From positions 1-64,000 of IMG/VR virus record IMGVR_UViG_3300033463_006479: a stretch of 64,000 nucleotides of DNA; one strand, written 5' to 3'. A program made the translations under genes and the position numbers. Of the stretch, positions 12,913 to 46,440 are shown piece after piece; positions within the stretch are counted from its first letter, which is position 1, and the number at the start of each line of letters is the position of its first letter. This stretch comes from a virus. Taxonomy: Duplodnaviria; Caudoviricetes. The notes under the pieces are model-generated. The model was not told the DNA's origin. It was given only the letters and a program-made list of their open reading frames with translations, and ran no database searches.

Positions 12913-14295
12913 TCAAATTGTTTTCATATTTGTAATTTCAAAATTGCCGCTAACCTTTTCAAAATAGTCAAAGTCCATAGGATTTGGCTGGTTATCGTCT
13001 TCCAATAATTCCAATGTTGCAAATGTGTTCACACAAAGATTATCGTCCATATTTGAAACATATCTGTATGTCGCATTTTCATCCCACAATTGGTTATTAT
13101 ATCTGACAAATATGCCTTCCGACAATTTGGTGTCATTCTTTTTTACAATAAAATTGAAAATATCAGTATATTTTTCAATATCGTTTTTGCTTATGTATAT
13201 ATAAGCCCGCTCATCACCATAACCGTATCTGCCTATTGATATGATTCCAGTCCTTAACAGACTTTTCGGATGTAAAACCGAATTGACATACGACTGCAAT
13301 CTGCCGTTTGTCATAGGTTGTATCGCCAGTTTCTCTTTTATATAATCCAATGTATTCAGTATTCTCATATCAATTTTTGCTTTCCATATAAGTGTGGTCT
13401 GCGGAAGTTTCTGGTCGAATGTGATTCTTTTAAAATAATCAAAGTCCATATCACTTGGCTGATTCTTGTCTTTCAATATCTCAACTATGCTGAATTTGGA
13501 ATAAACCAGATTGTCATCCATATCCGAAATATATCTGTACGATAAACCTATGTTCGGAAAATCGCCCTTTAGCCGCACAAGCACGCCGTCTTTGGCATTT
13601 TCAACCTCATCGGAAAACATTGAAAAACCAATAACATCTTTATATTTTTCAATATCGGCATATTCCAAATAGATATAAAACAAGGTATCTTCCAACTCAT
13701 TTTTGAGATTTCTCCATTCACCTTTTGCTATATAACCAGTTTTCAGCAGGTTTTTTGGCGTTTTTGTATAAGAATACGACTTCAGCAGTTCTCTTGTTAC
13801 GGGTTTTATTCCAAGGTTTTCGTTTGCTTTCGCTGGATTCGCATTCGGGTTTTTCCACAATATGTGGCAATTTTCCAACGGAGGGTCATTGAAAAAACTT
13901 ATATCCAACGGCTGATTCAGATTGTCGTTTCGGTAAACGCATACCGCCTTGTCTATGTAATTTGATAATGTGTTGTCAAGCAATCCAAGGTATGATTCAA
14001 AATATCCATCATTGAACGGCTTTGTTGATATAAAACAGCCTTTGTCATATATCTTGACATTGGAAGTGTCTGGCAATTCAAGTTCAAGCATACCATCATA
14101 CTTGTATTTTTTTATGTCTTTATATGTGACATAAACGCTTTTTATTCCGCTTTCCCCCAAAAGTATATCGCCACTTTCCAGCCAGTCCTTTATGTTTGCT
14201 ACTGGAGGAAGATGCAGATTGGACATTCTGCTTTTTGTAAATGGCTTTATGTCAAGTTTCTCGTTTATGTATTGCTTGGTTTTCAATATTCTCAT
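12913..14295 (-). CDS. Tagged three-module protein (three TGD-type domains)
   Basis: Tags at the N-terminus, at ANENLGIKPVT and at MRILNTLDYIKEKLAIQPMT, each followed by an L(E/K/R)(S/T)G domain. Confidence 0.8.
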   Translation of the reverse strand: MRILKTKQYINEKLDIKPFTKSRMSNLHLPPVANIKDWLESGDILLGESGIKSVYVTYKDIKKYKYDGMLELELPDTSNVKIYDKGCFISTKPFNDGYFESYLGLLDNTLSNYIDKAVCVYRNDNLNQPLDISFFNDPPLENCHILWKNPNANPAKANENLGIKPVTRELLKSYSYTKTPKNLLKTGYIAKGEWRNLKNELEDTLFYIYLEYADIEKYKDVIGFSMFSDEVENAKDGVLVRLKGDFPNIGLSYRYISDMDDNLVYSKFSIVEILKDKNQPSDMDFDYFKRITFDQKLPQTTLIWKAKIDMRILNTLDYIKEKLAIQPMTNGRLQSYVNSVLHPKSLLRTGIISIGRYGYGDERAYIYISKNDIEKYTDIFNFIVKKNDTKLSEGIFVRYNNQLWDENATYRYVSNMDDNLCVNTFATLELLEDDNQPNPMDFDYFEKVSGNFEITNMKTI

Positions 14296-14298
14296 AGT

Positions 14299-15129
14299 TT
14301 AATTTATTATATCTCCTTTCAGCCAACTTGGTTTATTTTCTGGTAAAATAAGGTTTGGATTATCACTGCAATAAAAATTCCCACCAACCATACTCGGAGC
14401 TCCTTCAAGGGAAGTCAGACTATTACGACTGCAATTAAAATTTCCACCGACCTTTTGTGTTGCGCATTCAAGTGAGGTCAGTTCATTATCATTGCAATAA
14501 AAATCCCCGCCAACCATACTCGGAGCTCCTTCAAGATTGGTCAGATTGTTACCAATGCAACTAAAATCCCCACAAACTTCATTCGGTGCTCCTTCAAGTG
14601 TGGTAAGTTTATTGTTATAACAATAAAAATTCCCGCTCACTTTCTGCGGTGCTCCTTCAAGTGAAGTCAGTTTATTATCACGGCAACTAAAATCCCCACC
14701 GACTTTCTTCGGTGCACCTTCAAGTGTGGTAAGTTTATTGTTATAACAATAAAAATTCCCGCTCACTTTCTGCGGTGCTCCTTCAAGTGAAGTCAGTTTA
14801 TTATCACGGCAACTAAAATCCCTACCAACTTCCTGCGGTGCACCTTCAAGTGTGGTCAGATTAATATTAGTACAATAAAAACCACCACCAACCTTCCCGA
14901 ATCTTATTTTCAGTTTTCCATTAATTACTATATCCTCTAATACGATAACATCACCTTCGCAATCATAACACATTGTTTTTGGATTCCATATAAGATTGTT
15001 GCTTTCTGTGAATTGTCTTGATTTTTCATCAATATAATGTTCTTCCCTAAATTTGGAAAGCCTATCCTTTGTTACTGGCTGTATGGCCAGTTTTTCGTTT
15101 ATATATTCGTTTGAATCCAGTATTCGCAT
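14299..15129 (-). CDS. Tagged 21-aa LRR protein
   Basis: MRILDSNEYINEKLAIQPVTK followed by LTTLEGAPxxVGGxFxCxxNx repeats. Contains a near-exact 126-nt internal duplication. Confidence 0.85.
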   Translation of the reverse strand: MRILDSNEYINEKLAIQPVTKDRLSKFREEHYIDEKSRQFTESNNLIWNPKTMCYDCEGDVIVLEDIVINGKLKIRFGKVGGGFYCTNINLTTLEGAPQEVGRDFSCRDNKLTSLEGAPQKVSGNFYCYNNKLTTLEGAPKKVGGDFSCRDNKLTSLEGAPQKVSGNFYCYNNKLTTLEGAPNEVCGDFSCIGNNLTNLEGAPSMVGGDFYCNDNELTSLECATQKVGGNFNCSRNSLTSLEGAPSMVGGNFYCSDNPNLILPENKPSWLKGDIIN

Positions 15130-15134
15130 AATTA

Positions 15135-17318
15135 TTATTTTGTTATAAACACACCGTTCACCCAACTTGGCTTCTCTTCTGATAAAACAAGGTTTGGATT
15201 ATCACTGCAAATAAAATTACCGCCAACCACACTCGGAGTTCCTTCAAGTGTGGTCAGTTTATTGTTACCGCAATAAAAATTTCCGACCACTTTATTCGGT
15301 GCTCCATCAAGGGTGGTCAGTTTATTATTACTGCAATTAAAACCACTTCCAACTTTCTGTGATGCTCCTTCAAGGGTGGTCAGATTATTATTACTGCAAT
15401 CAAAATACCCGCCGACTTCATTCGGTGCTCCTTCAAGGGTGGTCAGTTGATTGTGAAAGCAAATAAAATCCCTACCAACTTTTTGTGGCGCACATTCAAG
15501 CGTGGTCAGATTATTAACACTGCAAAGAAAATCACCGCCAACCGCACTCGGAGCTCCTTTAAGTGTGGTAAGTTTATTGTTATTGCAATAAAAATCCCCA
15601 CCGACTTTCTTTGGTGCTCCCTCAAGGGTGGTAAGTTTATTATTACTGCAATCAAAACTTCCGCTCACTTCCTTTGGTGCTCCATCAAGGGTGGTAAGTT
15701 TATTATTACAGCAATCAAAATACCCGCCGACCTTCCCGAATCTTATTTTCAGTTTTCCGTCATTAAATATATCCTCCGATACTCTAATATCACCTTCACA
15801 GTCATAACTCATTGTTTTTTGATTCCAAATCAATCTGTTTTCTTCTATGAATCTCCTTGCGTTTTTGTCAACAGAAGGCTCTTCTTTCATTTTGGCAAGC
15901 ATATCCTTTGTGACTGGGTGTATTGTCAGTTTCTCGTTTATGCTTGCGCCATCAGCTTTCCACACGCATCTCAAATTGTCAATGTTATCAACCAGCATAA
16001 GCAGAAGAGTTGATGTAATCGGTGGATTTATTATATCTCTGTTCCTATATATTGCAACCGCTTTTTCTGTAAATGTGCTTTTCTTCAGATTTAGGTTGTC
16101 ATCATATTTGGATACTGGAAGTGCCAATATGTCATATATAATGTTTTTGCATAAAAACAGACCTTGTGAACAATCCTGCTCTGTAGGTGGCATAGGAACT
16201 TTCCACTCCTTGAAGTCCTTTTCTGCGACAAATATCTGGTATCTTCTTGTGTCTCCCGCATATTCAGTCACAAGCACATCACCGCTTTCAAGCAGCAGTT
16301 TCGGTTTTTTTGAAAACAATTTTTTTACTGAATCCAGTCTGGATTTTGTAACGGGTTTGATGTCAAGTTTCTCGTTCATATCAATGCTTTTTGATTCCCA
16401 CACACATTTGAGATTGTTTTCATAAACAATGGATTCCAGTTTATTCACCAAATCAATTGTCAGCGGAGGCTTTATATCGGTCGTGCCCCTATATATGGCA
16501 AACGGCATTTCTGGAAGAGTTTTATGCGGCTTGATGAGGTCATCATCATATAATGACAACGGATATAATAATATACCGTATAAAAGATTTGCACAAGCAA
16601 ACGTACCTTTAGTGTAATCGTAAAGCTGGGCATCCGTTGGATTCACGTTCCATTTTTTGAAATCCTTTTCTTCTATGAATATTTGATATATTTTCATATT
16701 TTTTGAATACCCAGATACAAGTATGTCCCCCGTTTTAAGCAGTAATTTCGGTTTCCTTTGTAATTCGGCCTTCTCCGCATCAAGTCGGCTCTTTGTCATA
16801 GGTTTTATATCCAGTTTCTCCGCAATCACATCATTGTTTCTTTTTTTCCATACACATCGTTTTCCAGCATCAGTAGGATTTTCAAAATAATTTGAATCCA
16901 AAGGCTGCTGTTTTTTCTCGCCCCTATAAATGGCTGTTATTTGCCTTACAACTTCTTTGCCCGCAATCTGTGTTCTATAATGCAGGTTGTCATCAAATAT
17001 GGAAACAGTCATTATGTGCAATCCGTGGCCGACCATTGGAAACACAAACGCACCTTCCTTGAACTCCGCATCGTCTTTAAGGTGATACAAATTCAGTTTT
17101 GTGTTATAGTCGTAATTTTTGAAATCGTCATAGGACACATACGTCCACAACTGGTATGACTTGGTGTCATTCGGCCTTATATATATCAGAACTTTCACAA
17201 CATCACCAGTTTCAAGAATCGGTTTTGGGTTTCTCTGAATTGCAGCCAGCCGACTTCTTGTCATAGGTTTTATGTCAAGTTTCTCGTTTGCGAATCGTAA
17301 TGTGTCAAGTATTTCCAT
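15135..17318 (-). CDS. Tagged four-module protein (three TGD domains plus LRR)
   Basis: Four EKLxIxP tags. Start moved to MEILDTLRF, downstream of the promoter at 17338. Confidence 0.85.
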   Translation of the reverse strand: MEILDTLRFANEKLDIKPMTRSRLAAIQRNPKPILETGDVVKVLIYIRPNDTKSYQLWTYVSYDDFKNYDYNTKLNLYHLKDDAEFKEGAFVFPMVGHGLHIMTVSIFDDNLHYRTQIAGKEVVRQITAIYRGEKKQQPLDSNYFENPTDAGKRCVWKKRNNDVIAEKLDIKPMTKSRLDAEKAELQRKPKLLLKTGDILVSGYSKNMKIYQIFIEEKDFKKWNVNPTDAQLYDYTKGTFACANLLYGILLYPLSLYDDDLIKPHKTLPEMPFAIYRGTTDIKPPLTIDLVNKLESIVYENNLKCVWESKSIDMNEKLDIKPVTKSRLDSVKKLFSKKPKLLLESGDVLVTEYAGDTRRYQIFVAEKDFKEWKVPMPPTEQDCSQGLFLCKNIIYDILALPVSKYDDNLNLKKSTFTEKAVAIYRNRDIINPPITSTLLLMLVDNIDNLRCVWKADGASINEKLTIHPVTKDMLAKMKEEPSVDKNARRFIEENRLIWNQKTMSYDCEGDIRVSEDIFNDGKLKIRFGKVGGYFDCCNNKLTTLDGAPKEVSGSFDCSNNKLTTLEGAPKKVGGDFYCNNNKLTTLKGAPSAVGGDFLCSVNNLTTLECAPQKVGRDFICFHNQLTTLEGAPNEVGGYFDCSNNNLTTLEGASQKVGSGFNCSNNKLTTLDGAPNKVVGNFYCGNNKLTTLEGTPSVVGGNFICSDNPNLVLSEEKPSWVNGVFITK

Positions 17319-17337
17319 ATATAGATTATTCCGTATA

Positions 17338-17383: not shown

Positions 17384-18334
17384 TCATATCCTTGTATGAG
17401 TGCTGAACAAGCCCTCACGCTCATACACAACTTCAGCATTGTCTGTCGGCGGATTTTTGAAATACTCCATCGGCAACGGCTGTTTTATATCATTACGCAA
17501 CACATATTCGGTAACACGATGCATCTTCACACGTTCAAGATTGTCGTTGAACGCAAAAAACGGAGCGTATGTAAATGCGTTTGCTTGATAGTATTTCACA
17601 ACAACGCCTTCCTTTTTTATGTAATCTGGTATGTTGATGAATGGCAAATTGAGAATGCTTCCATAATCATATTTGACAAAATCATCACCAGATATATAGA
17701 CACTCGTGTATTTTAGGTTTCCGTTGGAATTGGCCGAGCGTTCAACGATTATGTCGCCAGTCCTAATCTTGTCTTTCGGTGTCAATGCAAGTTCGGCCAA
17801 TCTTGTCTTTGTTATCGGTGTTATGTCAAGTTTTTCACCAATGACATCAATAAGTCTGGTTGGAAGATGCCAGATACAATCATATCCAGACAAATCTGGG
17901 TGGAAGATTCTGTCGTATATTTCTTTGTTAGTCAGTTCGTTTGACGAATGAAATATCTCCGAAACATACTCAAACCCGTGTATTCTTCTTCTTTGCAACT
18001 GATTGCTGTATTGTTCAATTGGCGTTTTGAACAATTCCTTATCTGTGTGTGAAAAATGAAGAAGCAAACCTTCGGTGTTTCTTATGTTATATGACACTCC
18101 AAGTTTTTCAAAATCATTTTTTGACACAAACACCCTCAACACTATGCGTTCCCGTACAACAATGTCATACGAATTTAAGTCTTGAAATACGCTTTTAACT
18201 ATGTCGCCAGTCTTGAGCATAAGTTTCGGAATTCCGTTATATATCTTATCCACGCCAGACTTCAGAACGGATTTCTTTATCGGCTTTATGTCAAGTTTCT
18301 CGCTAATGTGTTTATCGGTGTCAAGTATTCTCAT
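17384..18334 (-). CDS. Tagged two-module protein (two TGD domains)
   Basis: Tags HISEKLDIKP and VIGEKLDITPITKTRL, followed by LKTGDIV and IRTGDII. Confidence 0.8.
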   Translation of the reverse strand: MRILDTDKHISEKLDIKPIKKSVLKSGVDKIYNGIPKLMLKTGDIVKSVFQDLNSYDIVVRERIVLRVFVSKNDFEKLGVSYNIRNTEGLLLHFSHTDKELFKTPIEQYSNQLQRRRIHGFEYVSEIFHSSNELTNKEIYDRIFHPDLSGYDCIWHLPTRLIDVIGEKLDITPITKTRLAELALTPKDKIRTGDIIVERSANSNGNLKYTSVYISGDDFVKYDYGSILNLPFINIPDYIKKEGVVVKYYQANAFTYAPFFAFNDNLERVKMHRVTEYVLRNDIKQPLPMEYFKNPPTDNAEVVYEREGLFSTHTRI

Positions 18335-21122: not shown

Positions 21123-21518
21123 TTATTTATCTGTTTTTATTTCGTGGATTACGAGTGTTGTCGGAACGCCGCCCTTCTTAACCTCATCCCACAAATCGAA
21201 TCTGTTATATATGGTCGATGCCGTTGTTGAATTGAGTGTGTTCGCACCGAATATGAACGGCAGTGCTTCCTTTAACAAATCCCTTGTAATATCGTCCTTG
21301 TCTTTTGCGATTCCGTACATAATATTGTTTAGAATACGCAGCTGGGTTTCGCTCGCATCAATGGTGATAAGCTGTCTTTTGTCGCCATACATACGATTTG
21401 TATATAACTCAAACTTGGCGGTTTTCCACATATTGTCAAGCTCGGATGCGTTATCATCCATAATCTTGTCCTTGTATTCGTCAAGCAGTTCTTTTGTAAC
21501 GGGTTTTATTGTGAGCAT
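21123..21518 (-). CDS. Short-tag protein, unknown domain
   Basis: Starts MLTIKPVTKELL. Confidence 0.65.
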   Translation of the reverse strand: MLTIKPVTKELLDEYKDKIMDDNASELDNMWKTAKFELYTNRMYGDKRQLITIDASETQLRILNNIMYGIAKDKDDITRDLLKEALPFIFGANTLNSTTASTIYNRFDLWDEVKKGGVPTTLVIHEIKTDK

Positions 21519-21532
21519 TTTTGTTCTGTGTT

Positions 21533-22294
21533 TTAATATTTGAAGTGTGGCCGCTTTCCATCTCCGCAAGCCAAGTTCATCGGTGAAATATGGAACATAT
21601 CAATGTGCGTTATGACATTTGACACATCCCACCCAGACAAGTCTTGGAAAAACTTTGCGGCGTGGTTGAACATCTTATCCATATTTATGACATTTTTGAC
21701 ATTCCATCTTGATATGTCGCAATTAAAGGCATACGTGTACTCAAACATATAACTCATATTCCGTACATTTGAAACATCCCAATCAGATATATCACCATTA
21801 AATTCTGAATGATTGAACATATTTAACATAGAGTTTACATTTCCGACATCCCACTTTGAAATATCTCCTTTAAATTCTGAATATTCAAACATACCGCTCA
21901 TACCCTTTACGCTTGAAACATCCCAGTTTGAAATGTCCTTGTTGAATTTTGATTTTGAAAACATAAACCTCATACTTTTTACATTTGACACATCCCATTT
22001 GGAAATATCTCCATTGAATTTTGTGTCGTGAAACATACCATTCATTTTTTCCACATTTGACACATCCCATTTTGAAATGTCGCCATCAAACAGCTTAAAT
22101 GCTTCACATACATCACCCAAATATGACATATCCGTTATTGCTGATACATCAATATCGTTGAGGCTACAGCAATATCCTTTTTCCGATATGTGTTTACTTA
22201 TAATTTCCGCAAGTTCCAATTTGTCTTTTGGAAAGTATTTGTATGGCCGAAGTTCGGCAAGTCTTGTTTTAGTGATTGGTTTGATTGATAGCAT
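21533..22294 (-). CDS. Short-tag DUF285 repeat protein
   Basis: MLSIKPITKTRL followed by repeats. Confidence 0.85.
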   Translation of the reverse strand: MLSIKPITKTRLAELRPYKYFPKDKLELAEIISKHISEKGYCCSLNDIDVSAITDMSYLGDVCEAFKLFDGDISKWDVSNVEKMNGMFHDTKFNGDISKWDVSNVKSMRFMFSKSKFNKDISNWDVSSVKGMSGMFEYSEFKGDISKWDVGNVNSMLNMFNHSEFNGDISDWDVSNVRNMSYMFEYTYAFNCDISRWNVKNVINMDKMFNHAAKFFQDLSGWDVSNVITHIDMFHISPMNLACGDGKRPHFKY

Positions 22295-22314
22295 TTTTGT
22301 TCTGTTTTCTATAT

Positions 22315-22917
22315 TTATTGTCTGAAGTGTGGCTGCATTTCCCTTCCGTTACCGAATGCCATAGGCGAATAGTCAAACATAGAATCGTGTACTTTCACTT
22401 TTGCTACATTCCATCCAGACAAATCTTGCTCAAAAATTGTTGCGTGATTGAACATCCTATACATATTTCTTACATTTGAAACATCCCATTTGGAAATGTC
22501 TTGGTTGAAATTTGAGTTGTATTCAAACATACGAGCCATATGCTCCACATTGGAAACATTCCATTTTGTTATGTCTCCGTTGAAATTTGAATAACCGAAC
22601 ATATTGGCCATATTAAGAACATTGGAAACATCCCATTTGGATATGTCGCCGTTAAACTCGGATTCAGCAAACATATCAGCCATATTCTTCACATTAGACA
22701 CATTCCATCTGGATATGTCGCCATTGAAATAAGAGCCGTGGAACAAACCGCTCATATCTGTTATGGCAGAAACGTCTATGTCGTTGAGGTCGCAATAATA
22801 GTCTTTGTCAAGACGTTCATCCAATATATCTGCAAGTTCACCAAATGTTCTTGGATGATATTTGTATGGCCGAAGTTCGGCAAGCCTTGTTTTGGTGATT
22901 GGTTTTATTGTGAGCAT
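22315..22917 (-). CDS. Short-tag DUF285 repeat protein
   Basis: MLTIKPITKTRL followed by repeats. Confidence 0.85.
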   Translation of the reverse strand: MLTIKPITKTRLAELRPYKYHPRTFGELADILDERLDKDYYCDLNDIDVSAITDMSGLFHGSYFNGDISRWNVSNVKNMADMFAESEFNGDISKWDVSNVLNMANMFGYSNFNGDITKWNVSNVEHMARMFEYNSNFNQDISKWDVSNVRNMYRMFNHATIFEQDLSGWNVAKVKVHDSMFDYSPMAFGNGREMQPHFRQ

Positions 22918-22919
22918 TT

Positions 22920-23618
22920 TTATACTATATTTCTATGTGCAAATTTCGGTTGTTTTTTCGGTTGTGTCATAAGCGGACTGTGATTGAACATATTGTCGTA
23001 ATTAGTCACCTTACCGACATTCCAACCAGACAAGTCATTGTCAAAGTATATTGCCCCATTGAACATATCAGCCATAATATGCACATTGGAAACATTCCAT
23101 TTGGACAAATCACCATTAAAAAAAGTGGCTGACTGGAACATACCACACATATCTGTAACATTGCCAACATTCCATTTGGATATGTCTCCATTGAATTTTG
23201 AATATGTGAACATATATTTCATAGTTTTCACATTACTCACATCCCATTTTGAAATGTCACCGTTGAAACTTGAACCATAAAACATATCCACCATATTTGT
23301 AACATTGGAAACATCCCACATTGAAATATCGCCGTCAAATTTTGAGTTTGTAAACATATTATACATTGTTTCCACATTTGAAACATCCCATTTGGAAATA
23401 TCCCCGTTAAATGACCTCAACGCATTGTTTGCATTGAATATGTTTGTCATATCGGTTATTGCGGAAACGTCTATGTCGTTCAAATCACAACAGTTTCCTT
23501 TTAACAATATGCGTCCTATTATGAGTTCTATCAGCTTCATTCTCGTTTTAGGATAATACTTGTAATTGCGTTTGTATCCTAATAATCTCGTCTTTGTGAT
23601 AGGTTTGATTGTGAGCAT
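22920..23618 (-). CDS. Short-tag DUF285 repeat protein
   Basis: MLTIKPITKTRL followed by repeats. Confidence 0.85.
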   Translation of the reverse strand: MLTIKPITKTRLLGYKRNYKYYPKTRMKLIELIIGRILLKGNCCDLNDIDVSAITDMTNIFNANNALRSFNGDISKWDVSNVETMYNMFTNSKFDGDISMWDVSNVTNMVDMFYGSSFNGDISKWDVSNVKTMKYMFTYSKFNGDISKWNVGNVTDMCGMFQSATFFNGDLSKWNVSNVHIMADMFNGAIYFDNDLSGWNVGKVTNYDNMFNHSPLMTQPKKQPKFAHRNIV

Positions 23619-24350: not shown

Positions 24351-24461
24351 CGGAATTATCTCTTTTAGTCTTGTAGATTATTTATAGGACTTCAAGTTCA
24401 ATAGTCGCTTCATTGCTGTCCGAGTGCTCACCAGTTTTCTTGGGTTTTGCAAACGGTTGGT
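24351..24461 (-). mobile_element. Orphan right end of a type-1 TnpB element
   Basis: Matches the tnpB 3' ends and inverted repeats at 10991-11090 and 62006-62103. Flanked downstream by a DUF285 C-cap fragment (SPLEQHPEKQPKF). Confidence 0.8.
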
Positions 24462-24563
24462 TCATCAACTTCTGGGTTTTTCAAATCAACAAGCCTTTCT
24501 TTTAGTAACTGGCTTGATGTTCAGTTTCTCGTTTATGTATGTGTCTGACTTCAGTATTCTCAT
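24462..24563 (-). pseudogene. Truncated, frameshifted tagged LRR gene
   Basis: MRILKSDTYINEKLNIKPVTK, then a frameshifted ERLVDLK.PEVDE fused to the TnpB end. Confidence 0.75.
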
Positions 24564-25460: not shown

Positions 25461-25463
25461 AGT

Positions 25464-26165: not shown

Positions 26166-26191
26166 AGTTTTATATATGTTTATATTTAATA

Positions 26192-26833: not shown

Positions 26834-26836
26834 TGA

Positions 26837-27583: not shown

Positions 27584-27586
27584 AAA

Positions 27587-28225: not shown

Positions 28226-28228
28226 ACC

Positions 28229-28999: not shown

Positions 29000-29009
29000 A
29001 GCATTTTAA

Positions 29010-29627: not shown

Positions 29628-29630
29628 AGT

Positions 29631-30539: not shown

Positions 30540-31937
30540 TTATATAAAATTTGGCTGGTTTCCCTTGATTTTTGACAATGGCGAGTTATAGGAAAACTTG
30601 AAATACGTTGCATCTCTCCGCACATTCCATTCTGAAATATCCCCAGAAAAATCAGAATAACTGAACATAAAGGACATATCTTCAACATTGCCGACATTCC
30701 ATTTTGAAATGTCCCCGTTGAAATGCGAATCCTCAAACATACTTTTCATATCATTCACATTGCTGACATTCCATTTGGAAATGTCTCCGTTGAACTCGGA
30801 GTTCATAAACATACTGTTCATATTCTTTACTTTTCCCACATTCCATTTGGATATATCCCCGTTGAACTTGGAAGTGTTGAACATATTCGCCATATCTTCC
30901 ACGTTACCCACATTCCATTTGGAAATGTCCCCGTTGAAATCGGTGTTCATAAACATACTGTGCATAGACACAACATTTGAAACATTCCATTTTGAAATGT
31001 CGCCAGTGAAATATGAATCTTCAAACATATATGACATATACTTCACTTTGCTGACATTCCATCCAGATATATCTTGGTTAAAATCGGTTTCTTCAAACAT
31101 ACAAGTCATATCTCTAACATTGCCGACATTCCATTTGGAAACGTCCCCGTTGAATTTTGAACCAGCAAACATACAATACATATATTCAACATTTGAAACA
31201 TCCCAGCCAGATATATCCCCGTTGAAATCGGAATTACGGAACATATGATTCATATTTCTAACATTTGACACATCCCATTGTGAGATGTCGCCGTTGAAAT
31301 ATGATGATGCGAACAGCCCGCTCATATCAGTAACCCTATGCGTCTTTATAAAATTCAAATCCGCATCGCTTCCGTATTTTTTCACGGAAGATGCCACAAT
31401 ATCCTTTATTGTATCGTTTTCAGCGACCACATAAGTTTTGCATATCTCACCAAGCCTGCTTTTCGTAACGGGTTTTATGCCAAGTTTTTCATCAACCGAA
31501 CCTATGTAGCCGACTTTCGTCTTTCCGAACACGTCCTCTATCACCAAGCAGGTGTCTGTTGCGAACATACCCATTGAAAGATGCGGATTGTCAATAAGCC
31601 CGAAATCCAACCTCAACAATCGCATAAGTTCCTCCGTCAGTTTGTTCGTTCCGAAATGCAAAGGCAGGCAATCTTCCACACGGTCTCTGCCGTGGCTTTT
31701 CAACTTTGCAGCAGCCGCAAACAGTTTCTCATTGAAAACCTCAAGCGTTCTTCTTGACAAGCACAGCGTTATGAAGTAATGGTAAATATGCCCGTCATCG
31801 CCGACCACTCCCCTGCCGATTTTGGCATTGGCCAACTTCGCCTTCAGTGTTTCAATATCTCCCATAAGCCTTGTCCTTGTGACTGGCTTTATGTCAAGTT
31901 TCTCGTTTATATATTTGTCAGAATCAAGTATTTTCAT
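30540..31937 (-). CDS. Tagged two-module protein (unknown domain plus DUF285)
   Basis: Starts MKILDSDKY. Internal tag SVDEKLGIKPVTKSRL. Confidence 0.85.
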   Translation of the reverse strand: MKILDSDKYINEKLDIKPVTRTRLMGDIETLKAKLANAKIGRGVVGDDGHIYHYFITLCLSRRTLEVFNEKLFAAAAKLKSHGRDRVEDCLPLHFGTNKLTEELMRLLRLDFGLIDNPHLSMGMFATDTCLVIEDVFGKTKVGYIGSVDEKLGIKPVTKSRLGEICKTYVVAENDTIKDIVASSVKKYGSDADLNFIKTHRVTDMSGLFASSYFNGDISQWDVSNVRNMNHMFRNSDFNGDISGWDVSNVEYMYCMFAGSKFNGDVSKWNVGNVRDMTCMFEETDFNQDISGWNVSKVKYMSYMFEDSYFTGDISKWNVSNVVSMHSMFMNTDFNGDISKWNVGNVEDMANMFNTSKFNGDISKWNVGKVKNMNSMFMNSEFNGDISKWNVSNVNDMKSMFEDSHFNGDISKWNVGNVEDMSFMFSYSDFSGDISEWNVRRDATYFKFSYNSPLSKIKGNQPNFI

Positions 31938-34518: not shown

Positions 34519-36039
34519 TTATGCGAGGCTGTCATACCAATATGGTGCTTTTCCGTCAAGCGGTGAGTTGGTGAACATAAACCCGCTCGGTCTCAAACTC
34601 TTCGTGTTCCATCTGGAAAGGTCGCCATTGAATTTTGAATATGCGAACATACAGTCCATATTGACTACATTGGAAACATCCCAGTCCGATATGCTTCCGT
34701 TGAACACAGAAGCTATGAACATACGCTCCATATTCGTAACACTGGAAACGTCCCAATACGATATGTCCCCGTTGAACTTGGAGTTGGCGAACATAAAGGA
34801 CATATCTTCAACATTGGAAACATTCCATTCTGAAATGTCCCCGTTGAAATTTGAATCGGAGAACATTTCTGCCATATATTTCACATTGCCGACATTCCAC
34901 TTTGAAATGTCGCCGTTGAAATTTGACTTTTTGAACATACCGTTCATATTGAAAACACTTGAAACATCCCATCTGGAAATGTCGCCTTGAAATGCCGATT
35001 CAACAAACATCTCTTTCATATTTTCAACTTTGCTGACATCCCATTTTGAAATGTCGCCATTGAAAACCGAATCCTCAAACATATTGTTCATTGCAATAAC
35101 TTTGCCGACATCCCATTTGGAAATGTCACCGTTAAATTTAGACCAGTTGAACATATACGCCATATCTGTTACATTGGAAACGTCCCAGTCCGAGATATTT
35201 TTGTTGAATGACGAATGGCAGAACATCGACCCCATATCCGTAACATTGGAAACATTCCATTTGGAAATATCTCCGTTGAAATATGAACGATAAAACATTC
35301 TATGCATATTTCTGACATTGCTGACATCCCATTCGGATATGTCGCCTTGGAATGTTGTGTTTCTGAACAATTCCACCATTTCGTAAATCATCGAAACATC
35401 AATGTCGTTGAGGTTGCAGAATATGCCTTCTTTCTGTATTCTTTTGTGTATTATGTCCTTCAGCTCTTCTTTCGTTTTCGGAAAATACTTATACTTTCCG
35501 TATTTCCCTTTGTAATCTGAAAGCGTTGTTTTGCTTATCGGCTTGATTATGAGCTTTTCATTCAAGCGTTTTGTGCGTTTCCACACAAATTTGCTGTTGC
35601 CGAGTGTGTAACCCCTTTTGAAAAAATCCAATGTCAGTGGTGTTTGAATTATGTTCGGCCTCATTATGCCACTGATGTGATAGTCTTTGTCAAATGTGGC
35701 GAAAAGATTGTCATTAAATATGCTTGCGTTCATATATTCGAATTTCTTTGAACTATTGTCATAATAAACAAGAAACCCGTCAAGAATAAGGTCTTTGTCG
35801 CCAACAAGTATAAGTTCAAGGCCGCTTAATGATTCGTAGTATTCATTGTATTCCACAACATCCTCATAGGATATGTATGTCAATATGCCAAAAGTGCCTT
35901 TCTGTTTGTTTATTATCACACCATCCCCGCTTTTCAGCATACGCTTCGGCGGATTGCCCAACGTGGAAAGCCTTGTCTTTGTAACTGGCTTTATATCCAA
36001 TTTTTCGTCTATGTATTTGTTTGAATCAAGTATTCTCAT
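34519..36039 (-). CDS. Tagged two-module protein (TGD domain plus DUF285)
   Basis: Internal tag RLNEKLIIKPISKTTL. Confidence 0.85.
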   Translation of the reverse strand: MRILDSNKYIDEKLDIKPVTKTRLSTLGNPPKRMLKSGDGVIINKQKGTFGILTYISYEDVVEYNEYYESLSGLELILVGDKDLILDGFLVYYDNSSKKFEYMNASIFNDNLFATFDKDYHISGIMRPNIIQTPLTLDFFKRGYTLGNSKFVWKRTKRLNEKLIIKPISKTTLSDYKGKYGKYKYFPKTKEELKDIIHKRIQKEGIFCNLNDIDVSMIYEMVELFRNTTFQGDISEWDVSNVRNMHRMFYRSYFNGDISKWNVSNVTDMGSMFCHSSFNKNISDWDVSNVTDMAYMFNWSKFNGDISKWDVGKVIAMNNMFEDSVFNGDISKWDVSKVENMKEMFVESAFQGDISRWDVSSVFNMNGMFKKSNFNGDISKWNVGNVKYMAEMFSDSNFNGDISEWNVSNVEDMSFMFANSKFNGDISYWDVSSVTNMERMFIASVFNGSISDWDVSNVVNMDCMFAYSKFNGDLSRWNTKSLRPSGFMFTNSPLDGKAPYWYDSLA

Positions 36040-37641: not shown

Positions 37642-39351
37642 TCAAATGATTAAGTTGTCAAGTCCATCAACAAAATCAGAGAATTTCACTGGTGTCAATT
37701 TGCCGTCAATCTCCATAAGCAATCCGCTGTCCCTATTCCATATAACTTCCAGATATTTCACATCGTTTCCGTATATGTCCTTGGTCAAATCTTTGGCCAT
37801 TTCACCTTCAAAATATTCCTTGTCCGCATATTTCTGGTATTGCGGACGGACGATACTTTTCAAAAAACGAGCGACAAAATACGACTTGGTATATTTTATG
37901 TAACCGTCATACATACTGAAATCGTCAATTTCATATAAGCTGTGAATAACGTCATTATGCTCATCGTGTATGATACACAGTCCGATTTTGGGGGCAATTT
38001 CCATAAGCCCGCTTGCGGCTTGGCAAACCGCCTCCCCGTTTCTGTAAAGTATGTCAATGGCGGAATCATATATACTCTGGCTTGTTATTTTTTTCGACCA
38101 TTTGCATTTTTCAAGTTTTTCACGTTGAAGCTGCAATCTTATCTCTTCAAATTTCACTCTGATGCCTTTCGGACTGTTTGAGTCATACATTAAATAATAA
38201 TCGTACTTATCAAATTTTGGATTTATCCAAAGGTGTGTGGCAAACAGAGCATTTGCCAAAGCGTATGTCGTTTCATCAAAGGTTTTCGGGCATTCAATGA
38301 AATTGTCCGAATCATAGATGTTGTCATACTTTTTTATTCCGTGCAGGCGTTCCCTGCTGACTGGCCGTATGTTGAGTTTTTCATTCACACTTTCTGAAAC
38401 CTTGTCGGCTGGAACATATTTCTTGTTGTACCTGCTCCATATTGTGGCGGTATCCATATTTTCAACCCACTCTCTGTCATCAAGGCGGTTTATGTAATTC
38501 CTTGTGAGTTCCGATTTCTGGTTCACATCCTTCAATATGTAGTTTACCGTAATGTATTTGCTTGAAAGGTTGTTGTCAAGGTCGGCCACCGAAATTGATA
38601 TGCAACTTGCACCACTATCAATATCTCCTTTTTTGAACAATATGCCTTCCTCCGATGCTTTCATTGTTATCATATATCCATAAGAAAGAAGCAGTTTTTC
38701 GTATTTTTTCAAATCGTCCTTTCCTATGAATACCATTGTGAAACCTTCGTATGTGTTGGTATCAATCAGTCTGTCGCCTATAACAATGTCCCCAGTATGC
38801 AGTTTGTTTTTCGGAAGAATTGTGCGTTTGGCGTTGTCAAGCCTTGCTTTGGTGACTGGCCTTATGTCAAGTTTTTCTTCAACATTTTTTGGTCTTTCCC
38901 AAAGCATATAGCTCCCTTCTGGTGCGATGCCCCTTTTCAAGTATTCCATTGTAAGTGGCTTTGGCAAGTTTTTTCCACGCATTATGCCAAACGCTTCAAT
39001 CCTATTGTCGGATGGGAATTTCAGATTTTCGTCAAACAGACCAGCCTTCAGATATGCAAATGTGTTTTTATTTTTATCGAAACCGATAAAAACGCCATCA
39101 TCCAAACTGCCTTGCGCATCGTGGTAAATGTGGTGTATCCCTTTCCATTTGTAGCAGCCAAGTCGTTTGAACTCATCATATGATATATAGAAAAACGCAG
39201 CAAATCTTTGCTCTATGGTATGCATCATAACCAAATCTCCGTCTTTCAACAGTTTCTTCGGTGACTTTGAAAGATTGTGCAGCATTGTTTTTGAAACTGG
39301 CCTTATGTCAAGTTTCTCGTTCATATAGTCGGTGGTTTTCAATATTCTCAT
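37642..39351 (-). CDS. Tagged three-module protein (two TGD domains plus a CPxT..ET domain)
   Basis: Internal tags NVEEKLDIRPVTKARL and SVNEKLNIRPVSRERL. Confidence 0.8.
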   Translation of the reverse strand: MRILKTTDYMNEKLDIRPVSKTMLHNLSKSPKKLLKDGDLVMMHTIEQRFAAFFYISYDEFKRLGCYKWKGIHHIYHDAQGSLDDGVFIGFDKNKNTFAYLKAGLFDENLKFPSDNRIEAFGIMRGKNLPKPLTMEYLKRGIAPEGSYMLWERPKNVEEKLDIRPVTKARLDNAKRTILPKNKLHTGDIVIGDRLIDTNTYEGFTMVFIGKDDLKKYEKLLLSYGYMITMKASEEGILFKKGDIDSGASCISISVADLDNNLSSKYITVNYILKDVNQKSELTRNYINRLDDREWVENMDTATIWSRYNKKYVPADKVSESVNEKLNIRPVSRERLHGIKKYDNIYDSDNFIECPKTFDETTYALANALFATHLWINPKFDKYDYYLMYDSNSPKGIRVKFEEIRLQLQREKLEKCKWSKKITSQSIYDSAIDILYRNGEAVCQAASGLMEIAPKIGLCIIHDEHNDVIHSLYEIDDFSMYDGYIKYTKSYFVARFLKSIVRPQYQKYADKEYFEGEMAKDLTKDIYGNDVKYLEVIWNRDSGLLMEIDGKLTPVKFSDFVDGLDNLII

Positions 39352-40198: not shown

Positions 40199-42178
40199 AT
40201 GAAATTGCGTGAGATAGACATATCCGACAAACAGCAGGTGCTTGGTTTTTTTGTGTCAGAGCCAAACCCAGACAAGAACGGCAGAATGAAACGTGAGGAA
40301 ACATTCGCAAGGCTGTTTCCAGAACTTTATTCCGAGTTCAAGGTTTTTGTTTTTTCTGCTGACTTGGCCACCTCAACATTCGTTCAAAGGTTATGGCATT
40401 TCTTGCATAATGATAACGGAAATCTTGGCATTTGTCCAGTGTGCGGAAAACGCACGAAGTTTCAGTCGTTCACACTCGGATACCTTACATATTGCTCGTC
40501 AAAATGCGCCAATGCTTGTAATGACAAAAAAGATAAAGTTGCAAAATCGTGGATTGACAGATACGGGGGTGTGGGCTATGCTTCAGATAAAACGCAAGAA
40601 AAAATAAAGGCCACAATGCTTGAACGATATGGCGTTGAGTATTCGTCACAGAATGAAGCCATAAAACAGAAAATCATTGATTCGGAAACAAGAAATTTTG
40701 GCGGTGTCGGATTCGCATCCAAAAAGATTACAGACAAGTTCAAAGGCACTATGCTTGAACGATACGGAGTTGAATGGGCTTCGCAATCCGATGAGGTTAC
40801 GGAACGCAAGCGTATGAAAAAGATTTCTGGCAGCGACAATATTATAAGGATAACCGATGAGACGTTTGTTCTGAAATGCACAAATCCAGAATGTGAACTG
40901 TGCCAAGACAAACAATTTGAAATAAGCAGGAAAACATATCTGGCAAGGTTATCAAGAGGCAATGAACTGTGCACCATATTGAATCCGACAAAGACCATAG
41001 GCAAAGGGACAAGCGATTCCGAACAAAGTCTGTTCAAGTTCATCAAATCCATATATGGCGGAAAAATAATACAGAACGACAGAACCGCACTTGACGGAAT
41101 GGAGATTGACATATACCTGCCAGAGATAAATCTCGGTTTTGAGTTCAATGGGGATTACTGGCATCTGAATCCAAGAATATATGGTATGGATGATTGTGTG
41201 TTTGACCGAAACGCAAAGGATGTGTGGGAACGCATTATGCGAAAAGAATATGCGGCCAACAAGAAAGGCATAACTCTTGTTGAGGTGTGGGAAAATGACT
41301 GGTCTGGAAAATGCGATGAGGTGAAATCGCATATTTCAGATTTTGTGTCATATCCGACATTCAGTCCATCACCATATTATATATTGAAGGAGTTCCTTGA
41401 TTCTCTGCCAGCCAGATATGATGAATCGGAGTTCGGGCATTTTTCGTTCAAAGAGGCCGACATTATATATTCAAACGCATTTTACTTTAACAAAGGCACA
41501 GTACATTCGCACATAAAGTCGGAACAAGAAAAACGTACAATATATGTGTATGACTTTGAGATTAAGGACAATCGAAAATTTGATATTCTGAAAAGTCTCA
41601 TAGGGCACGCACTCGGACTGACGGAAAACAAGATATTTGCAAGAAAGTGCGAATTGAGGGAAATCACAAACACGGAATCCAGAAAGTTCCTTGATGAGAA
41701 CTCTTTGTTCGGGCATAGGGATGCCAATGTGGTGCTTGGCCTTTTTCATAATGGCGAGCTTGTTATGGTTTATAGTTTCGGCCACAACTATTATGGACGG
41801 AAAGACCATATAGAGATTATACGTGTCTGCACAAAGAAGAACACGGTTGTTGTTGGCGGTTCGTCAAAATGCTTGAAATACTTTATGGAGAAATATGGCG
41901 GTGATATCGGTTGCCGCAAAATCATATTCTATGTGGATAGAATACACAATGACGGAAAATCGCTAAAAGGATTCAAATTCTTGAAGCACGAATACGGTGT
42001 TATGAACTACTGGCTGGAAGATTATGTCGGGGATGGGTTTGTCGGTATGGCTGGCACTGCATTCAACAGAATGCCGTCAAAGCACGAAATTATCAAAAAA
42101 CTGACAAAACTCGGAAAAATCGTTCCGATTGAAACTCTTGGCGTTGATGTGTACGAATACGCAAAACCAACAGAGTAA
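40199..42178 (+). CDS. Free-standing homing-endonuclease-like protein (Zn finger, ERYGVE repeats, Vsr-like PD-(D/E)xK, Hef-like C-terminus)
   Basis: CPVCG..YCSSKC, two TMLERYGVE repeats, EIDIYLPEINLGFEFNGDYWH, KIFARKCELREI...VVGGSSK. Confidence 0.75.
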   Translation: MKLREIDISDKQQVLGFFVSEPNPDKNGRMKREETFARLFPELYSEFKVFVFSADLATSTFVQRLWHFLHNDNGNLGICPVCGKRTKFQSFTLGYLTYCSSKCANACNDKKDKVAKSWIDRYGGVGYASDKTQEKIKATMLERYGVEYSSQNEAIKQKIIDSETRNFGGVGFASKKITDKFKGTMLERYGVEWASQSDEVTERKRMKKISGSDNIIRITDETFVLKCTNPECELCQDKQFEISRKTYLARLSRGNELCTILNPTKTIGKGTSDSEQSLFKFIKSIYGGKIIQNDRTALDGMEIDIYLPEINLGFEFNGDYWHLNPRIYGMDDCVFDRNAKDVWERIMRKEYAANKKGITLVEVWENDWSGKCDEVKSHISDFVSYPTFSPSPYYILKEFLDSLPARYDESEFGHFSFKEADIIYSNAFYFNKGTVHSHIKSEQEKRTIYVYDFEIKDNRKFDILKSLIGHALGLTENKIFARKCELREITNTESRKFLDENSLFGHRDANVVLGLFHNGELVMVYSFGHNYYGRKDHIEIIRVCTKKNTVVVGGSSKCLKYFMEKYGGDIGCRKIIFYVDRIHNDGKSLKGFKFLKHEYGVMNYWLEDYVGDGFVGMAGTAFNRMPSKHEIIKKLTKLGKIVPIETLGVDVYEYAKPTE

Positions 42179-42366: not shown

Positions 42367-44169
42367 ATGTATTACAATTCTATTAATGAATCACAAGTTC
42401 TCAACACTTGGGGACAGCACATTAAGGAGAGTTTGGGCATTAACGATGAAAGCAAGTTGGCTTGGATGTCAAAATATGCTTATATGCACGATTTGCACGA
42501 CAAACAAATGTTGAACGAATCCGTGGACGGACACGCTCACCTCAACCCTAATATGACAATCGGCGGAATGGGTCAAATCACATTCCCAGGCGCAACAACC
42601 AACAACACTTACGACCGCTCTTTGGCTGGTTCTGGTGACAATGTTTACAGCGTGCTTCCTTTGGCACTGCAAGTAGCAGCACAGACCATCGCCCTTGACC
42701 TCGTTCCCGTTGTTCCTATGCAGGGACCTCACGGCCTTTTGCAGTACCTCGACTATGTTTACGAAGGTGGCCGTCTGCACAACCAAGGTGGCAGCAAGTA
42801 CACTTCCGAAATCAAGAGCGATGTAATGGGTAACTTCGCATCTCCTTATATGATTAAGGCTATGCTCTTTGACGTTACCGAAGGCGAAGGCAGCGATGCT
42901 CCAAAGCATATGTTTGCTCCTAACGCAAAATACGCCATCAAAGGTCTTGAAGACGATTACGATTTGACTTTCATCTATCCTAACCGTATTGATGGTAAAC
43001 CTTTGTTCCGTGTGATTGAAAAATCCCACTACAATGGCGGACAGAAAATGGTTGGCGGTGAAAACGCTGGTGTTCCTATCTACGTTATCTTCGAAAACCT
43101 CAAAACCACTGAAAACCCAAACGGCAAATACGAACTCGTAGCCCTCGGAACTGGTTCTGACAGCAAAACTCTTACTATCCGCAAATCTGAAGGTTTGCAG
43201 GAAGTTCGTGCTTTTGAAGACCACATCACCTCTTTCAGCGGCGAAGGTTTCTTGAAAGACACCGTTACCTCAAACAATCCTTATACAAGGGAAATGGGCG
43301 AGGCTACTCCTGGCCGTAAGATTGGTTTGAAATCTTACACTCTGGATGTTAAAGCCACCACTTTCCAAGTTGACAGCGCAATCACCCGTGAACAAGTCCA
43401 AGACTTGAAACAGTTTGGTATTGACGCAGTTGCTCAAGCTGAAGCCGCATTGGTTAATGAACTTACCCAATGTATCAACAAGGTCATCCTTGAAAAGATG
43501 TTCAACCTTGGTGCTTTGAACGCTAAACAACTTGAGGAAGTTGAAGGCCGCAACCAAGTTTCCGCTTGGTTCACCAACGGAACTGGTTCTACCCCGACTA
43601 CCAAAATCTGGTTGGGCGACCAAATCAACAAAGAAGGCGAACTGGAAGACAAATATTTCACCGAAGTTCCTTTCACTAACGTGACTGGTGGTGGTGAAGT
43701 TATGGGTACTATCCAAAGACGTGTGATGACCAAAATCATCGCTGCTTCCAACATCATCGCTGTTCGTGGCCGTAGGGGTGCTGGTACTTTCGCTGTCGTA
43801 AGCGGAACTATCGGAACTGCTCTCCAAGACTGCGCTGGTTTCGTTCCTTATCCGTTGAGCAACACAATCTCCGCTAACGGTAACAGCCTTTATCCTATCG
43901 GTGCTCTCGCTGGTATCAGCATTTATGTTGACCCGAATATGGCATTCAACGACACACGTGTTTGCGTTGGTCGTAAGGGTAAAGAGAACGAACCTGGTAT
44001 CGTGTTTATGCCTTATTTGATGGCTGACAAAGTGGAAACCACTTCAGAGTTCACGATGGCTCCTGTCATCAGTCTGAAGAGCCGCTTCGCAGTTGTTGAA
44101 GCAGGTATCTACCCGCAGACCCAGTATTATACCTTCGGTATTAAACTGGAAGGCGTTAGCCTTGTGTAA
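42367..44169 (+). CDS. Major capsid protein, T4 gp23-like
   Basis: VPVVPMQGPHGLLQYLDYVY, TREQVQDLK, IYVDP and VGRKG...GIVFMPY. Strong codon bias. N-terminal INE/LNE sites. Confidence 0.9.
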   Translation: MYYNSINESQVLNTWGQHIKESLGINDESKLAWMSKYAYMHDLHDKQMLNESVDGHAHLNPNMTIGGMGQITFPGATTNNTYDRSLAGSGDNVYSVLPLALQVAAQTIALDLVPVVPMQGPHGLLQYLDYVYEGGRLHNQGGSKYTSEIKSDVMGNFASPYMIKAMLFDVTEGEGSDAPKHMFAPNAKYAIKGLEDDYDLTFIYPNRIDGKPLFRVIEKSHYNGGQKMVGGENAGVPIYVIFENLKTTENPNGKYELVALGTGSDSKTLTIRKSEGLQEVRAFEDHITSFSGEGFLKDTVTSNNPYTREMGEATPGRKIGLKSYTLDVKATTFQVDSAITREQVQDLKQFGIDAVAQAEAALVNELTQCINKVILEKMFNLGALNAKQLEEVEGRNQVSAWFTNGTGSTPTTKIWLGDQINKEGELEDKYFTEVPFTNVTGGGEVMGTIQRRVMTKIIAASNIIAVRGRRGAGTFAVVSGTIGTALQDCAGFVPYPLSNTISANGNSLYPIGALAGISIYVDPNMAFNDTRVCVGRKGKENEPGIVFMPYLMADKVETTSEFTMAPVISLKSRFAVVEAGIYPQTQYYTFGIKLEGVSLV

Positions 44170-44188
44170 CCTTTAATTAGGTTTCAAT

Positions 44189-44222: not shown

Positions 44223-44225
44223 TTT

Positions 44226-44233
44226 TATAAATA
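44226..44233 (+). promoter_or_regulatory. Late promoter TATAAATA
   Basis: Lies 18 nt upstream of the ATG at 44252. Confidence 0.7.
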
Positions 44234-44251
44234 TAGTAACAATTTGTGAAT

Positions 44252-44800: not shown

Positions 44801-44809
44801 TAACTTACT

Positions 44810-45280: not shown

Positions 45281-45285
45281 TAGTT

Positions 45286-45831
45286 ATGAAAATACTAAAA
45301 TCAGATAAATACATAAACGAGAAACTCGGCATCAAACCAGTTACAAAAACAAGGCTGATTGACATAAAGGAAACATCTGTCGTGGCTACAGATGACACAT
45401 TGCTTGGCATTATTTTTGATGCCATAGAAACATATGGTTATGAAGGTGACTTCAACTTTATACAGACATATAAAGTTACCAGTATGAGCAACTTGTTTGA
45501 ATCTTCGGAGTTTAACGGGGACATTTCAAAATGGGATGTCAGCAACGTGACCAATATGAGCGAAATGTTTGAGGATTCAAAATTCAATAGGGACATTTCA
45601 AAATGGGATGTTTCCAATGTGCGTTTTATGGACTATATGTTCCAAGGGTCTGCATTTAACGGAGACATATCAAGATGGAATGTGTGTAATGTGAAAGATA
45701 TGAGTTATATGTTCACCGATTCAAATTTCAATGGGGATTTGACCTTGTGGAATGTGGGTAAAGATGTTCCTAAAGAATATATGTTTAGCCATTGCCCGCT
45801 TGGAAAAAATCCGCCAGCTTGGTACAAATAA
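45286..45831 (+). CDS. Tagged DUF285 repeat protein
   Basis: Paralog of 44252-44800. Confidence 0.85.
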   Translation: MKILKSDKYINEKLGIKPVTKTRLIDIKETSVVATDDTLLGIIFDAIETYGYEGDFNFIQTYKVTSMSNLFESSEFNGDISKWDVSNVTNMSEMFEDSKFNRDISKWDVSNVRFMDYMFQGSAFNGDISRWNVCNVKDMSYMFTDSNFNGDLTLWNVGKDVPKEYMFSHCPLGKNPPAWYK

Positions 45832-45840
45832 TAACTTGCT

Positions 45841-46440
45841 ATGAAAATATACAAATCCGAAAATTATATAAGCGAAAAACTCGGCATTAAGCCAATATCA
45901 AAAACAAGACTTGGCAAAATTCTGTATGTTGATACGTATAAAAGCGCAGCCGATATGCGTAGCAATCTTCAAACTGGCGATATTGTTGTGATTGGAAATG
46001 AAGATGAAAACATACAAGGGACATACATATCATACAATGATATAAAAAGCGGCGTGTATGATAGTTACTTTCATTTCATAAAAAGAATTTCTGAACTGCC
46101 AAACAGCGAAATTGCTGAAGGCTTGTTTGTTTTTTGGGAGAAAGAGGGGTTTTATACAAAAATTTCAGTACAAGAATTTGATGCTGACCTTAAAAAATAT
46201 AATACATTCAGAATTATGTATGTTTATAGGTTGCCTCTGCTTTTACAAAAACCATTACCAGAAGAGTTCTTTAAAACCAACCATATTCCGAAAGCAAAAC
46301 TGATTTGGAGTTACAACGGAAAATCGGTTAATGAGAAACTTGACATACAGCCAGTTACGAGGGAACGTCTTGGCGACATAAAAGACGGAATGTATGTTAT
46401 AACTGGATGTGTTGTTGAGTGGGATAACAACAGAAGTTGA
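45841..46440 (+). CDS. Tagged TGD-domain protein whose second module is interrupted by a TnpB element
   Basis: Internal tag SVNEKLDIQPVTRERL. The frame resumes at 48273-48431 (GFRDATEKEFDD...). Confidence 0.75.
   Translation: MKIYKSENYISEKLGIKPISKTRLGKILYVDTYKSAADMRSNLQTGDIVVIGNEDENIQGTYISYNDIKSGVYDSYFHFIKRISELPNSEIAEGLFVFWEKEGFYTKISVQEFDADLKKYNTFRIMYVYRLPLLLQKPLPEEFFKTNHIPKAKLIWSYNGKSVNEKLDIQPVTRERLGDIKDGMYVITGCVVEWDNNRS

Follow-up and report, generated by a model that had tools for sequence, protein, structure and literature searches.

Recurrence of the core of a two-part tag between the modules of phage proteins: candidate precursors of T4-type capsid cargo

Why should a peptide tag that begins dozens of phage genes be repeated inside some of the longer open reading frames (ORFs), at the points where one domain ends and the next begins? 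The question is raised by the first 64 kb (64,000 nucleotides; hereafter the window) of the linear, 192,463-bp viral contig IMGVR_UViG_3300033463_006479, a fragment with a CheckV completeness of ~70% and ~258 called genes, in which seven multi-domain ORFs between positions 12,913 and 46,440 carry two to four copies of a hydrophobic-x-Glu sequence followed by K-L-x-I-x-P. The original prediction took these ORFs for polyproteins cut at each copy into several payloads with near-identical N-termini. Our analysis favors, at a probability of roughly 0.55, a specific form of this idea, in which the multi-tag ORFs encode capsid-cargo precursors that a head protease would cut at each linker, leaving modules that begin with one and the same leader peptide.

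The back-translated core of the tag, GARAARYTNNNNATHNNNCC, matches the window 56 times, whereas 100 dinucleotide-preserving shuffles gave an expectation of 0.10, and six-frame motif scans of the whole contig found ~85 core copies, with 69 of the ~258 genes tagged. Sixteen copies are internal, 11 of them in the window and five elsewhere in the contig. The same scans recovered every copy number that had been claimed for the seven multi-tag ORFs, which are laid out below in window coordinates, with tag positions given as the first base of the Glu codon (X denotes a new family of ~135 residues; LRR, leucine-rich repeat).

15135..17318, minus strand: four tags (17285, 16820, 16373, 15935); propeptide / X / X / X / LRR-type module (type A); predicted pieces of 155, 149, 146 and 265 residues
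16782..16826, minus strand: internal tag between X1 and X2 of 15135-17318, I-A-E / K-L-D-I-K-P...
16335..16379, minus strand: internal tag between X2 and X3 of 15135-17318, M-N-E / K-L...
15897..15941, minus strand: internal tag between X3 and the LRR-type module of 15135-17318, I-N-E / K-L...
12913..14295, minus strand: three tags (14262, 13821, 13335); X / X / X, the third X with a complete tag and Met
13783..13827, minus strand: internal tag of 12913-14295, A-N-E / N-L-G-I-K-P...
13297..13341, minus strand: internal, whole N-terminal tag of 12913-14295, M-R-I-L...I-K-E / K-L...
37642..39351, minus strand: three tags (39318, 38877, 38382); X / X / module D
38839..38883, minus strand: internal tag of 37642-39351, V-E-E / K-L...
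38344..38388, minus strand: internal tag of 37642-39351, V-N-E / K-L...
17384..18334, minus strand: two tags (18301, 17836); X / X
17798..17842, minus strand: internal tag of 17384-18334, I-G-E / K-L...
30540..31937, minus strand: two tags (31904, 31490); 138-residue non-X module, then DUF285 repeats (Pfam DUF285, 3e-123)
31452..31496, minus strand: internal tag of 30540-31937, V-D-E / K-L...
34519..36039, minus strand: two tags (36006, 35559); X / DUF285 (Pfam DUF285, 4e-158)
35521..35565, minus strand: internal tag of 34519-36039, L-N-E / K-L...
45841..46440, plus strand: two tags (45874, 46333); X, then a small truncated module adjoining a TnpB element
46327..46371, plus strand: internal tag of 45841-46440, V-N-E / K-L...

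The last of these ORFs has an intact ortholog of 243 residues (P0016), to which similarity ends at ~46431, just ahead of the TnpB gene.

Sequence logos resolve the tag into two parts of 12 residues each, namely part 1, M-[KR]-I-L-x-[ST]-x-x-[YF]-I-x-E, and a leader, K-L-x-I-x-P-[VI]-[TS]-[KR]-x-R-L. Among the 68 N-terminal tags, nearly all have the Glu, here P1, at position 12, 59 have Ile at P3 and 62 have Tyr or Phe at P4. Internal copies have mostly lost the M-x-I-L...Y portion, as had been stated (10 of the 11 in the window; the exception, at 13335, is complete including its Met), and comparison of the internal with the N-terminal logo places the boundary precisely, internal conservation starting exactly at P3 and extending to +12. 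Across the contig, P3 is hydrophobic (V/I/L/A/M) in 16 of 16 internal copies, with no constraint at P4 or further upstream; the one internal row with an aromatic P4 is an N-terminal tag shifted by one residue. A hydrophobic-x-Glu triplet is present at all 11 internal junctions of the window. Of 42 internal leaders counted in 50%-identity representatives from other phages, all have Glu at P1 and 41 a hydrophobic P3 (V 20, I 9, L 6, A 4, M 2); K occupies P1' in 34, S in six and G in two, and P4 and P5 are variable. Within the tag the codons vary synonymously (five for Leu, four for Pro and three for Ile), which argues that the repeat is selected as a peptide and not as DNA. A variant tag, M-K-I-F-K-T-D-N-F-V-S-E / R-L-K-I-N-P-V-T-N-A-E, is found in a phage with an 80% identical capsid protein (L003, IMGVR_UViG_3300028888_000071).

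Part 1 and the leader also occur apart, and they separate exactly at the Glu/Lys bond.

21123..23618, minus strand: four adjacent genes beginning at the leader, M-L-x-I-K-P-[IV]-T-K, their start being the predicted mature end
48497..49684, minus strand: 395-residue protein with part 1 only, a capsid-targeting-like N-terminus (...E-F-I-N-E / S-V) without leader
Genome 115497-116495, 186702-187268 and 149678-149911: further proteins with part 1 only

Genes at genome positions 75994 and 172549 likewise begin M-L-x-I-x-P, that is, at +1 with Met in place of Lys. In the four part-1-only proteins the tag ends in I-A-E, I-N-E, I-K-E or I-V-E; one contig protein begins M-R-I-L-R-S-S-Q-F-I-A-E and continues with G-A-G, and the protein at genome 115497 harbors an additional internal V-D-E / leader at residue 117.

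The site at which the two parts separate resembles that of a known head protease. In phage T4, gp21 cleaves after L/I-x-E, the first 10 residues of the internal protein IPIII suffice for head targeting, and residues 8 and 10 govern its processing (PMC9026906); the T4 capsid targeting sequence as a whole is ~10 residues long and ends in F-I-A-E (PMC9026906; bioRxiv 10.1101/2021.01.19.427310). The motif of the contig fits the gp21 rule, and part 1 on one contig protein ends in the same F-I-A-E. The contig also encodes a capsid protein of the T4 type, whose N-terminal region holds M-[LMI]-[NA]-E / S-V-D-G at residues 48-52, conserved in five relatives.

42367..44169, plus strand: T4-type major capsid protein (Pfam Gp23, 1.5e-30)

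In two tag-bearing relatives, G001 (in which 66 tag copies were counted, the control having 0) and G002, an S77 protease scores above the Pfam cut-off, at 49.5 and 41.7 bits, respectively.

L013 (G001:C1:290934-294281) and L014: protease-scaffold ORF of the relatives, with S77 as the N-terminal domain of a ~645-residue protein

The protease domain is followed by 11-13 tandem repeats of 14 residues, of the type H-N-D-Y-L-A-E-Q-L-Q-K-N-F-D, each with D-Y-L-A-E-[KQ]-L, which has its P4-P2' pattern (aromatic-aliphatic-small-Glu-Lys/Gln-Leu) in common with the Y-I-N-E-K-L of the tag. By analogy with gp22 of T4, which is cut to small peptides (PMC9026906), this tail may be a self-destructing scaffold. 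The claim that selection preserves a cleavage site at the internal copies is supported for the motif, its Glu being invariant and its P3 hydrophobic in agreement with L/I-x-E, but cleavage itself is predicted from the motif, and the convincing protease is that of the relatives.

The tag had been expected to lie in disordered linkers, and AlphaFold models agree, showing irregular, low-confidence coil between independently folding modules. The model of X2 of 15135-17318 with both flanking tags (121-row alignment) has a mean predicted local distance difference test score (pLDDT) of 88; in it the stretch hydrophobic-x-E-K-L-x-I-K-P is coil, with a block pLDDT of 59-72 (67 for the X2-X3 tag block), and a helix starts at T-K-x-R-L and leads into the next module. 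The model of the full X-X protein 17384-18334 (maff890eda8ab) has a mean pLDDT of 84 with domains above 90, and its predicted template modeling score (pTM) of 0.47 indicates two domains without a fixed arrangement; the P7-P1 segment of the internal site (residues 161-167) drops below 50, and the N-terminal tag scores 59-69. A structural strand integral to each fold had been named as one finding that would speak against processing; given coil and low pLDDT at the tag, it is a linker element in these models and not a strand of the fold. A mixed X-DUF285 alignment (A4) was discarded for folding, MAFFT having divided the N-terminal tags between both tag positions and misplaced the X modules.

Which modules do the tags separate? 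Splitting the tagged contig proteins at their tags gave 82 segments, 14 of them non-terminal, and alignment A1 shows the internal copies to sit at module borders. Stand-alone or terminal X modules end 5-12 residues past their last strand, the very point at which the internal tag starts in fused forms. Terminal modules comprise X, DUF285 repeats, an LRR-type family (23 members), family D (four members), a Fib_succ_major domain and singletons, and X, DUF285, LRR-type and D modules are each found as single-tag genes as well. The prediction of several payloads per precursor nevertheless overstated their variety, as 12 of the 14 non-terminal modules are X, set before a varied last module. That X is the sole possible non-terminal module was considered in turn and is weakened by the protein P0006, in which a DUF285-like repeat (S-D-W-D-V-S-N-I-K) stands just before an internal tag. 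In the window, the LRR-type tandem arrays at 49825-60101 (plus strand) and 24567-30518 (minus strand) have near-identical 3' ends, ...K-P-S-W-[LVI]-K-G, and a spacing of 3-10 nt.

The tag is rare: with X as the query of an exhaustive profile search, 1.84 billion proteins yielded no more than 90 representative clusters, many of them with 2-5 X units, which points to a system confined to a small clade; a word-indexed homolog search with the X-X protein found a single near-identical protein. Pfam and PHROGs gave no match for X, module D or the part-1-only proteins, and Foldseek gave none for X against PDB and BFVD at E ≤ 0.001. Weak resemblance of X to viral hypothetical proteins is within noise. 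X is not called a peptidase here, the best VIA-align Z of 5.6 (YiiX / NlpC-P60-like folds) being in the noise range and conserved Cys/His being absent.

The four-tag layout of 15135-17318 is also present in a syntenic relative (L011/L012), which indicates that such chains are stable; where the window has the X-X-X ORF 12913-14295, this relative has one X-X gene and two separate X genes. Fusions, deletions and hybrids between paralogs are seen in the tandem arrays of tagged genes, and the fused copy at 13335 retains Met and the whole of part 1, which suggests a route in which adjacent tagged genes fuse and part 1 then decays, the hydrophobic-x-Glu and the leader being kept. An orphan tag, M-R-I-L-K-S-D-T-Y-I-N-E-K-L-N-I-K-P-V-T-K, at window ~24430-24563 (minus strand) soon runs into a stop and is a remnant of a tagged gene. 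At window 29013-29600 (minus strand), the decayed remains of a tag (S-N-P-R-I-S-G-N-P) and an apparent single DUF285-like repeat come after a stand-alone X; the whole looks like a fused chain with an eroded joint and payload.

The octamer TATAAATA, which we take to be the T4 late-promoter consensus, precedes 12 of the 68 N-terminal tags, close to or at the heads of tagged gene runs, and none of the 16 internal ones; one copy is just 5' of the Met at 17318 that begins the four-tag ORF.

These observations fit a precursor in which multi-tag chains would be made late in infection and part 1, as the local version of the T4 capsid targeting sequence, would bring each chain into the prohead core. 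A head protease of the S77 (T4 gp21) type would then cut after the hydrophobic-x-Glu of the N-terminal tag and of every inter-module linker, and each released module would start with the same leader, K-L-x-I-x-P-[VI]-T-K-x-R-L. The upstream modules would mostly be X, and the last would be X, a repeat of the DUF285 or LRR type, or some other payload. We favor this reading because conservation starts sharply at P3 with a Glu that is invariant even where P1' changes, because genes begin exactly at +1 and part 1 alone ends in hydrophobic-x-Glu, and because the P side of the site is disordered and is matched by the repeats of the relatives' protease-scaffold. Capsid targeting, cleavage and delivery to the host are what we infer from this pattern. 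The leader is kept where a cut is unneeded or impossible, which points to a further role, with head retention, ejection and docking to a partner as candidates; the triplet and leader could also be one functional peptide. A broader proposal, which we regard as tentative, sees in about a quarter of the phage's genes an arsenal of repeat-type binding modules (DUF285, LRR-type, X) that are made singly or as chains and loaded into the capsid. The head protease would release each module with the 12-residue leader, which would be a new, universal signal for retention in the head or for passage through the tail into the host, separable from the T4-like targeting piece.

Several findings weigh against the precursor. 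The leader is more conserved than the site itself and is retained in Met-start genes that need no cut, and proteases of the T4 type require no prime-side motif (PMC9026906). An internal leader at genome 98648 (G-G-K-L-E-I-K-P) lacks hydrophobic-x-Glu, and an N-terminal tag at genome 70291 has Lys in place of Glu with the leader kept. The contig holds no convincing protease gene, its sole S77-like match reaching 18 bits against a Pfam cut-off of 27 bits, and no homolog of the relatives' S77 enzyme; the 150-residue S77-like ORF at genome 104441-104893 was rejected as the protease, being a weak match and unrelated to the relatives' enzyme by BLASTP. The predominance of X among non-terminal modules also fits a fixed N-terminal accessory domain of an uncut protein, and DUF285, LRR and Fib_succ_major payloads are of types typical of surface proteins. 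The octamer numbers 59 copies on both strands against ~33 by a rough base-composition estimate, a modest excess. Lastly, the last junction of 12913-14295 has one A fewer in an A-run (window ~13350) than the relative, a possible homopolymer error; all three tags of this ORF were found, but its third fusion hangs on that single base, and the third module is either a very recent fusion or the product of such an error.

The alternative that survives best, although we consider it unlikely, is that the multi-domain proteins stay uncut, with the 15-residue block serving as a conserved linker or docking peptide that travels with each module upon duplication or fusion, binding a common partner (a capsid, scaffold or fiber site, or a chaperone), and with X as a fixed N-terminal adaptor. 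It would account for the strength of the leader, which is the most conserved part and persists both in Met-start genes and at the one internal place without hydrophobic-x-Glu, for a T-K-x-R-L helix that belongs to the following module, for the 12 X among 14 non-terminal modules, and for conservation of a prime side of which a T4-type protease has no need (PMC9026906). A docking block, however, leaves unexplained why conservation ends sharply at P3 and why Glu is invariant though P1' becomes S or G. It fits poorly, too, with leader-start genes that begin at exactly +1 in at least three separate places, with part 1 ending in hydrophobic-x-Glu on other proteins, with P7-P1 as the segment of lowest confidence in the X-X model, and with the recurrence of the same P4-P2' pattern in the relatives' protease-scaffold tail.

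Improbable, in our estimation, is a destination other than the capsid, where the tag would address proteins to an adhesin coat on the virion surface or to cell export and the internal copies would be extra anchors. Its sole hint is the payloads, as DUF285/BspA-like, LRR-type and Fib_succ_major domains are usual in bacterial surface proteins, and it is countered by a tag that has no hydrophobic, signal-peptide-like stretch, by a part 1 that resembles the T4 capsid targeting sequence down to F-I-A-E, and by internal copies that drop part 1 and keep hydrophobic-x-Glu. Anchors of receptor-binding proteins known so far are, moreover, much longer than this tag. A constraint on the DNA or RNA itself, under which the repeat would act as a translation signal or as a hot spot where modules recombine and its peptide would be incidental, accords with the fusions, deletions and paralog hybrids of the tandem arrays but is very improbable given free synonymous variation at invariant residues, internal copies without start codon or promoter-like site, and a diverged relative in which the peptide pattern persists although its residues differ (V-S-E / R-L-K-I-N-P).

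The capsid protein also places the contig, which has a GC content of 38%, among its relatives. Its nearest counterparts in GenBank are from uncultured huge phages (44% identity), followed by Lak megaphages of Prevotella (33%), and megablast of the capsid region against GenBank phages gave no match; closer capsid proteins are found in IMG/VR, at 88% identity in a complete 413-kb genome (L002/G001) and at 79-80% in others. The intergenic spacers of the contig contain no Shine-Dalgarno-like purine run, which we take to fit a host of the Bacteroidota type. Further genes of the window include three of the TnpB type (PHROG transposase, 3e-121 and 6e-121; Pfam Cas12f1-like TNB).

207-1169, plus strand: DNA-invertase-like gene at the contig start (PHROG, 5e-24)
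40199-42178, plus strand: 659-residue homing-endonuclease / HNH-like gene directly 5' of the major capsid gene (PHROG, 1e-68)
11005-12240 (minus strand), 46629-48266 (plus strand) and 62029-63255 (minus strand): three TnpB / IS605-OrfB-type genes amid the tagged genes

If the precursor reading holds, huge phages of the gut or rumen have expanded T4-type head loading until it carries dozens of modular binding proteins, and a short, portable, two-part tag would define cargo from sequence alone. Such a tag would make the injected proteome of uncultured phages readable and would be a candidate for loading foreign proteins into such capsids. It also raises the question of what job the conserved mature-end leader performs. 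The T4 targeting sequence and its processing by gp21 are already known; a literature search on the motif strings found no paper, and we found no description of a two-part tag with a mature-end leader, of its presence on ~70 genes, or of its reuse as the joint between modules that are also single genes.

The closest known system is that of the T4 internal proteins. IPI, IPII, IPIII and Alt, whose targeting sequences are removed by gp21, likewise have a short N-terminal piece with an aromatic-Ile-x-Glu end on otherwise unrelated proteins, and both systems combine a T4-type capsid protein, an S77 protease (here in the relatives), the L/I-x-E rule and variable, clustered gene sets. They differ in scale, T4 having a handful of tagged genes and this contig ~70, a quarter of its genes, known from sequence alone. 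The T4 internal proteins lack a mature-side leader, whereas a second conserved element of 12 residues follows the site here, and in the contig the site recurs inside the chains. The cargo differs as well, consisting of small basic proteins in T4 and of repeat-type binding domains in the contig. Strong matches to DUF285 (PF03382) / BspA-like LRR proteins are seen in many single-tag genes and in the final modules of 30540-31937 and 34519-36039; the bacterial DUF285 proteins are surface proteins or lipoproteins, whereas those encoded here bear the phage tag where a signal peptide is lacking. Cutting of one chain by the head protease at several X-x-Glu sites is known from gp22, gp67 and gp68 of T4 and from head proteins of phages phiKZ, 201phi2-1 and SPN3US (PMC9026906; PMC10052503). 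In those core and phiKZ-type proteins the extra cuts mostly destroy a propeptide or scaffold so that the pieces leave the head, whereas the pieces predicted here are folded modules, encoded elsewhere by genes of their own, and would all acquire an identical new N-terminus.

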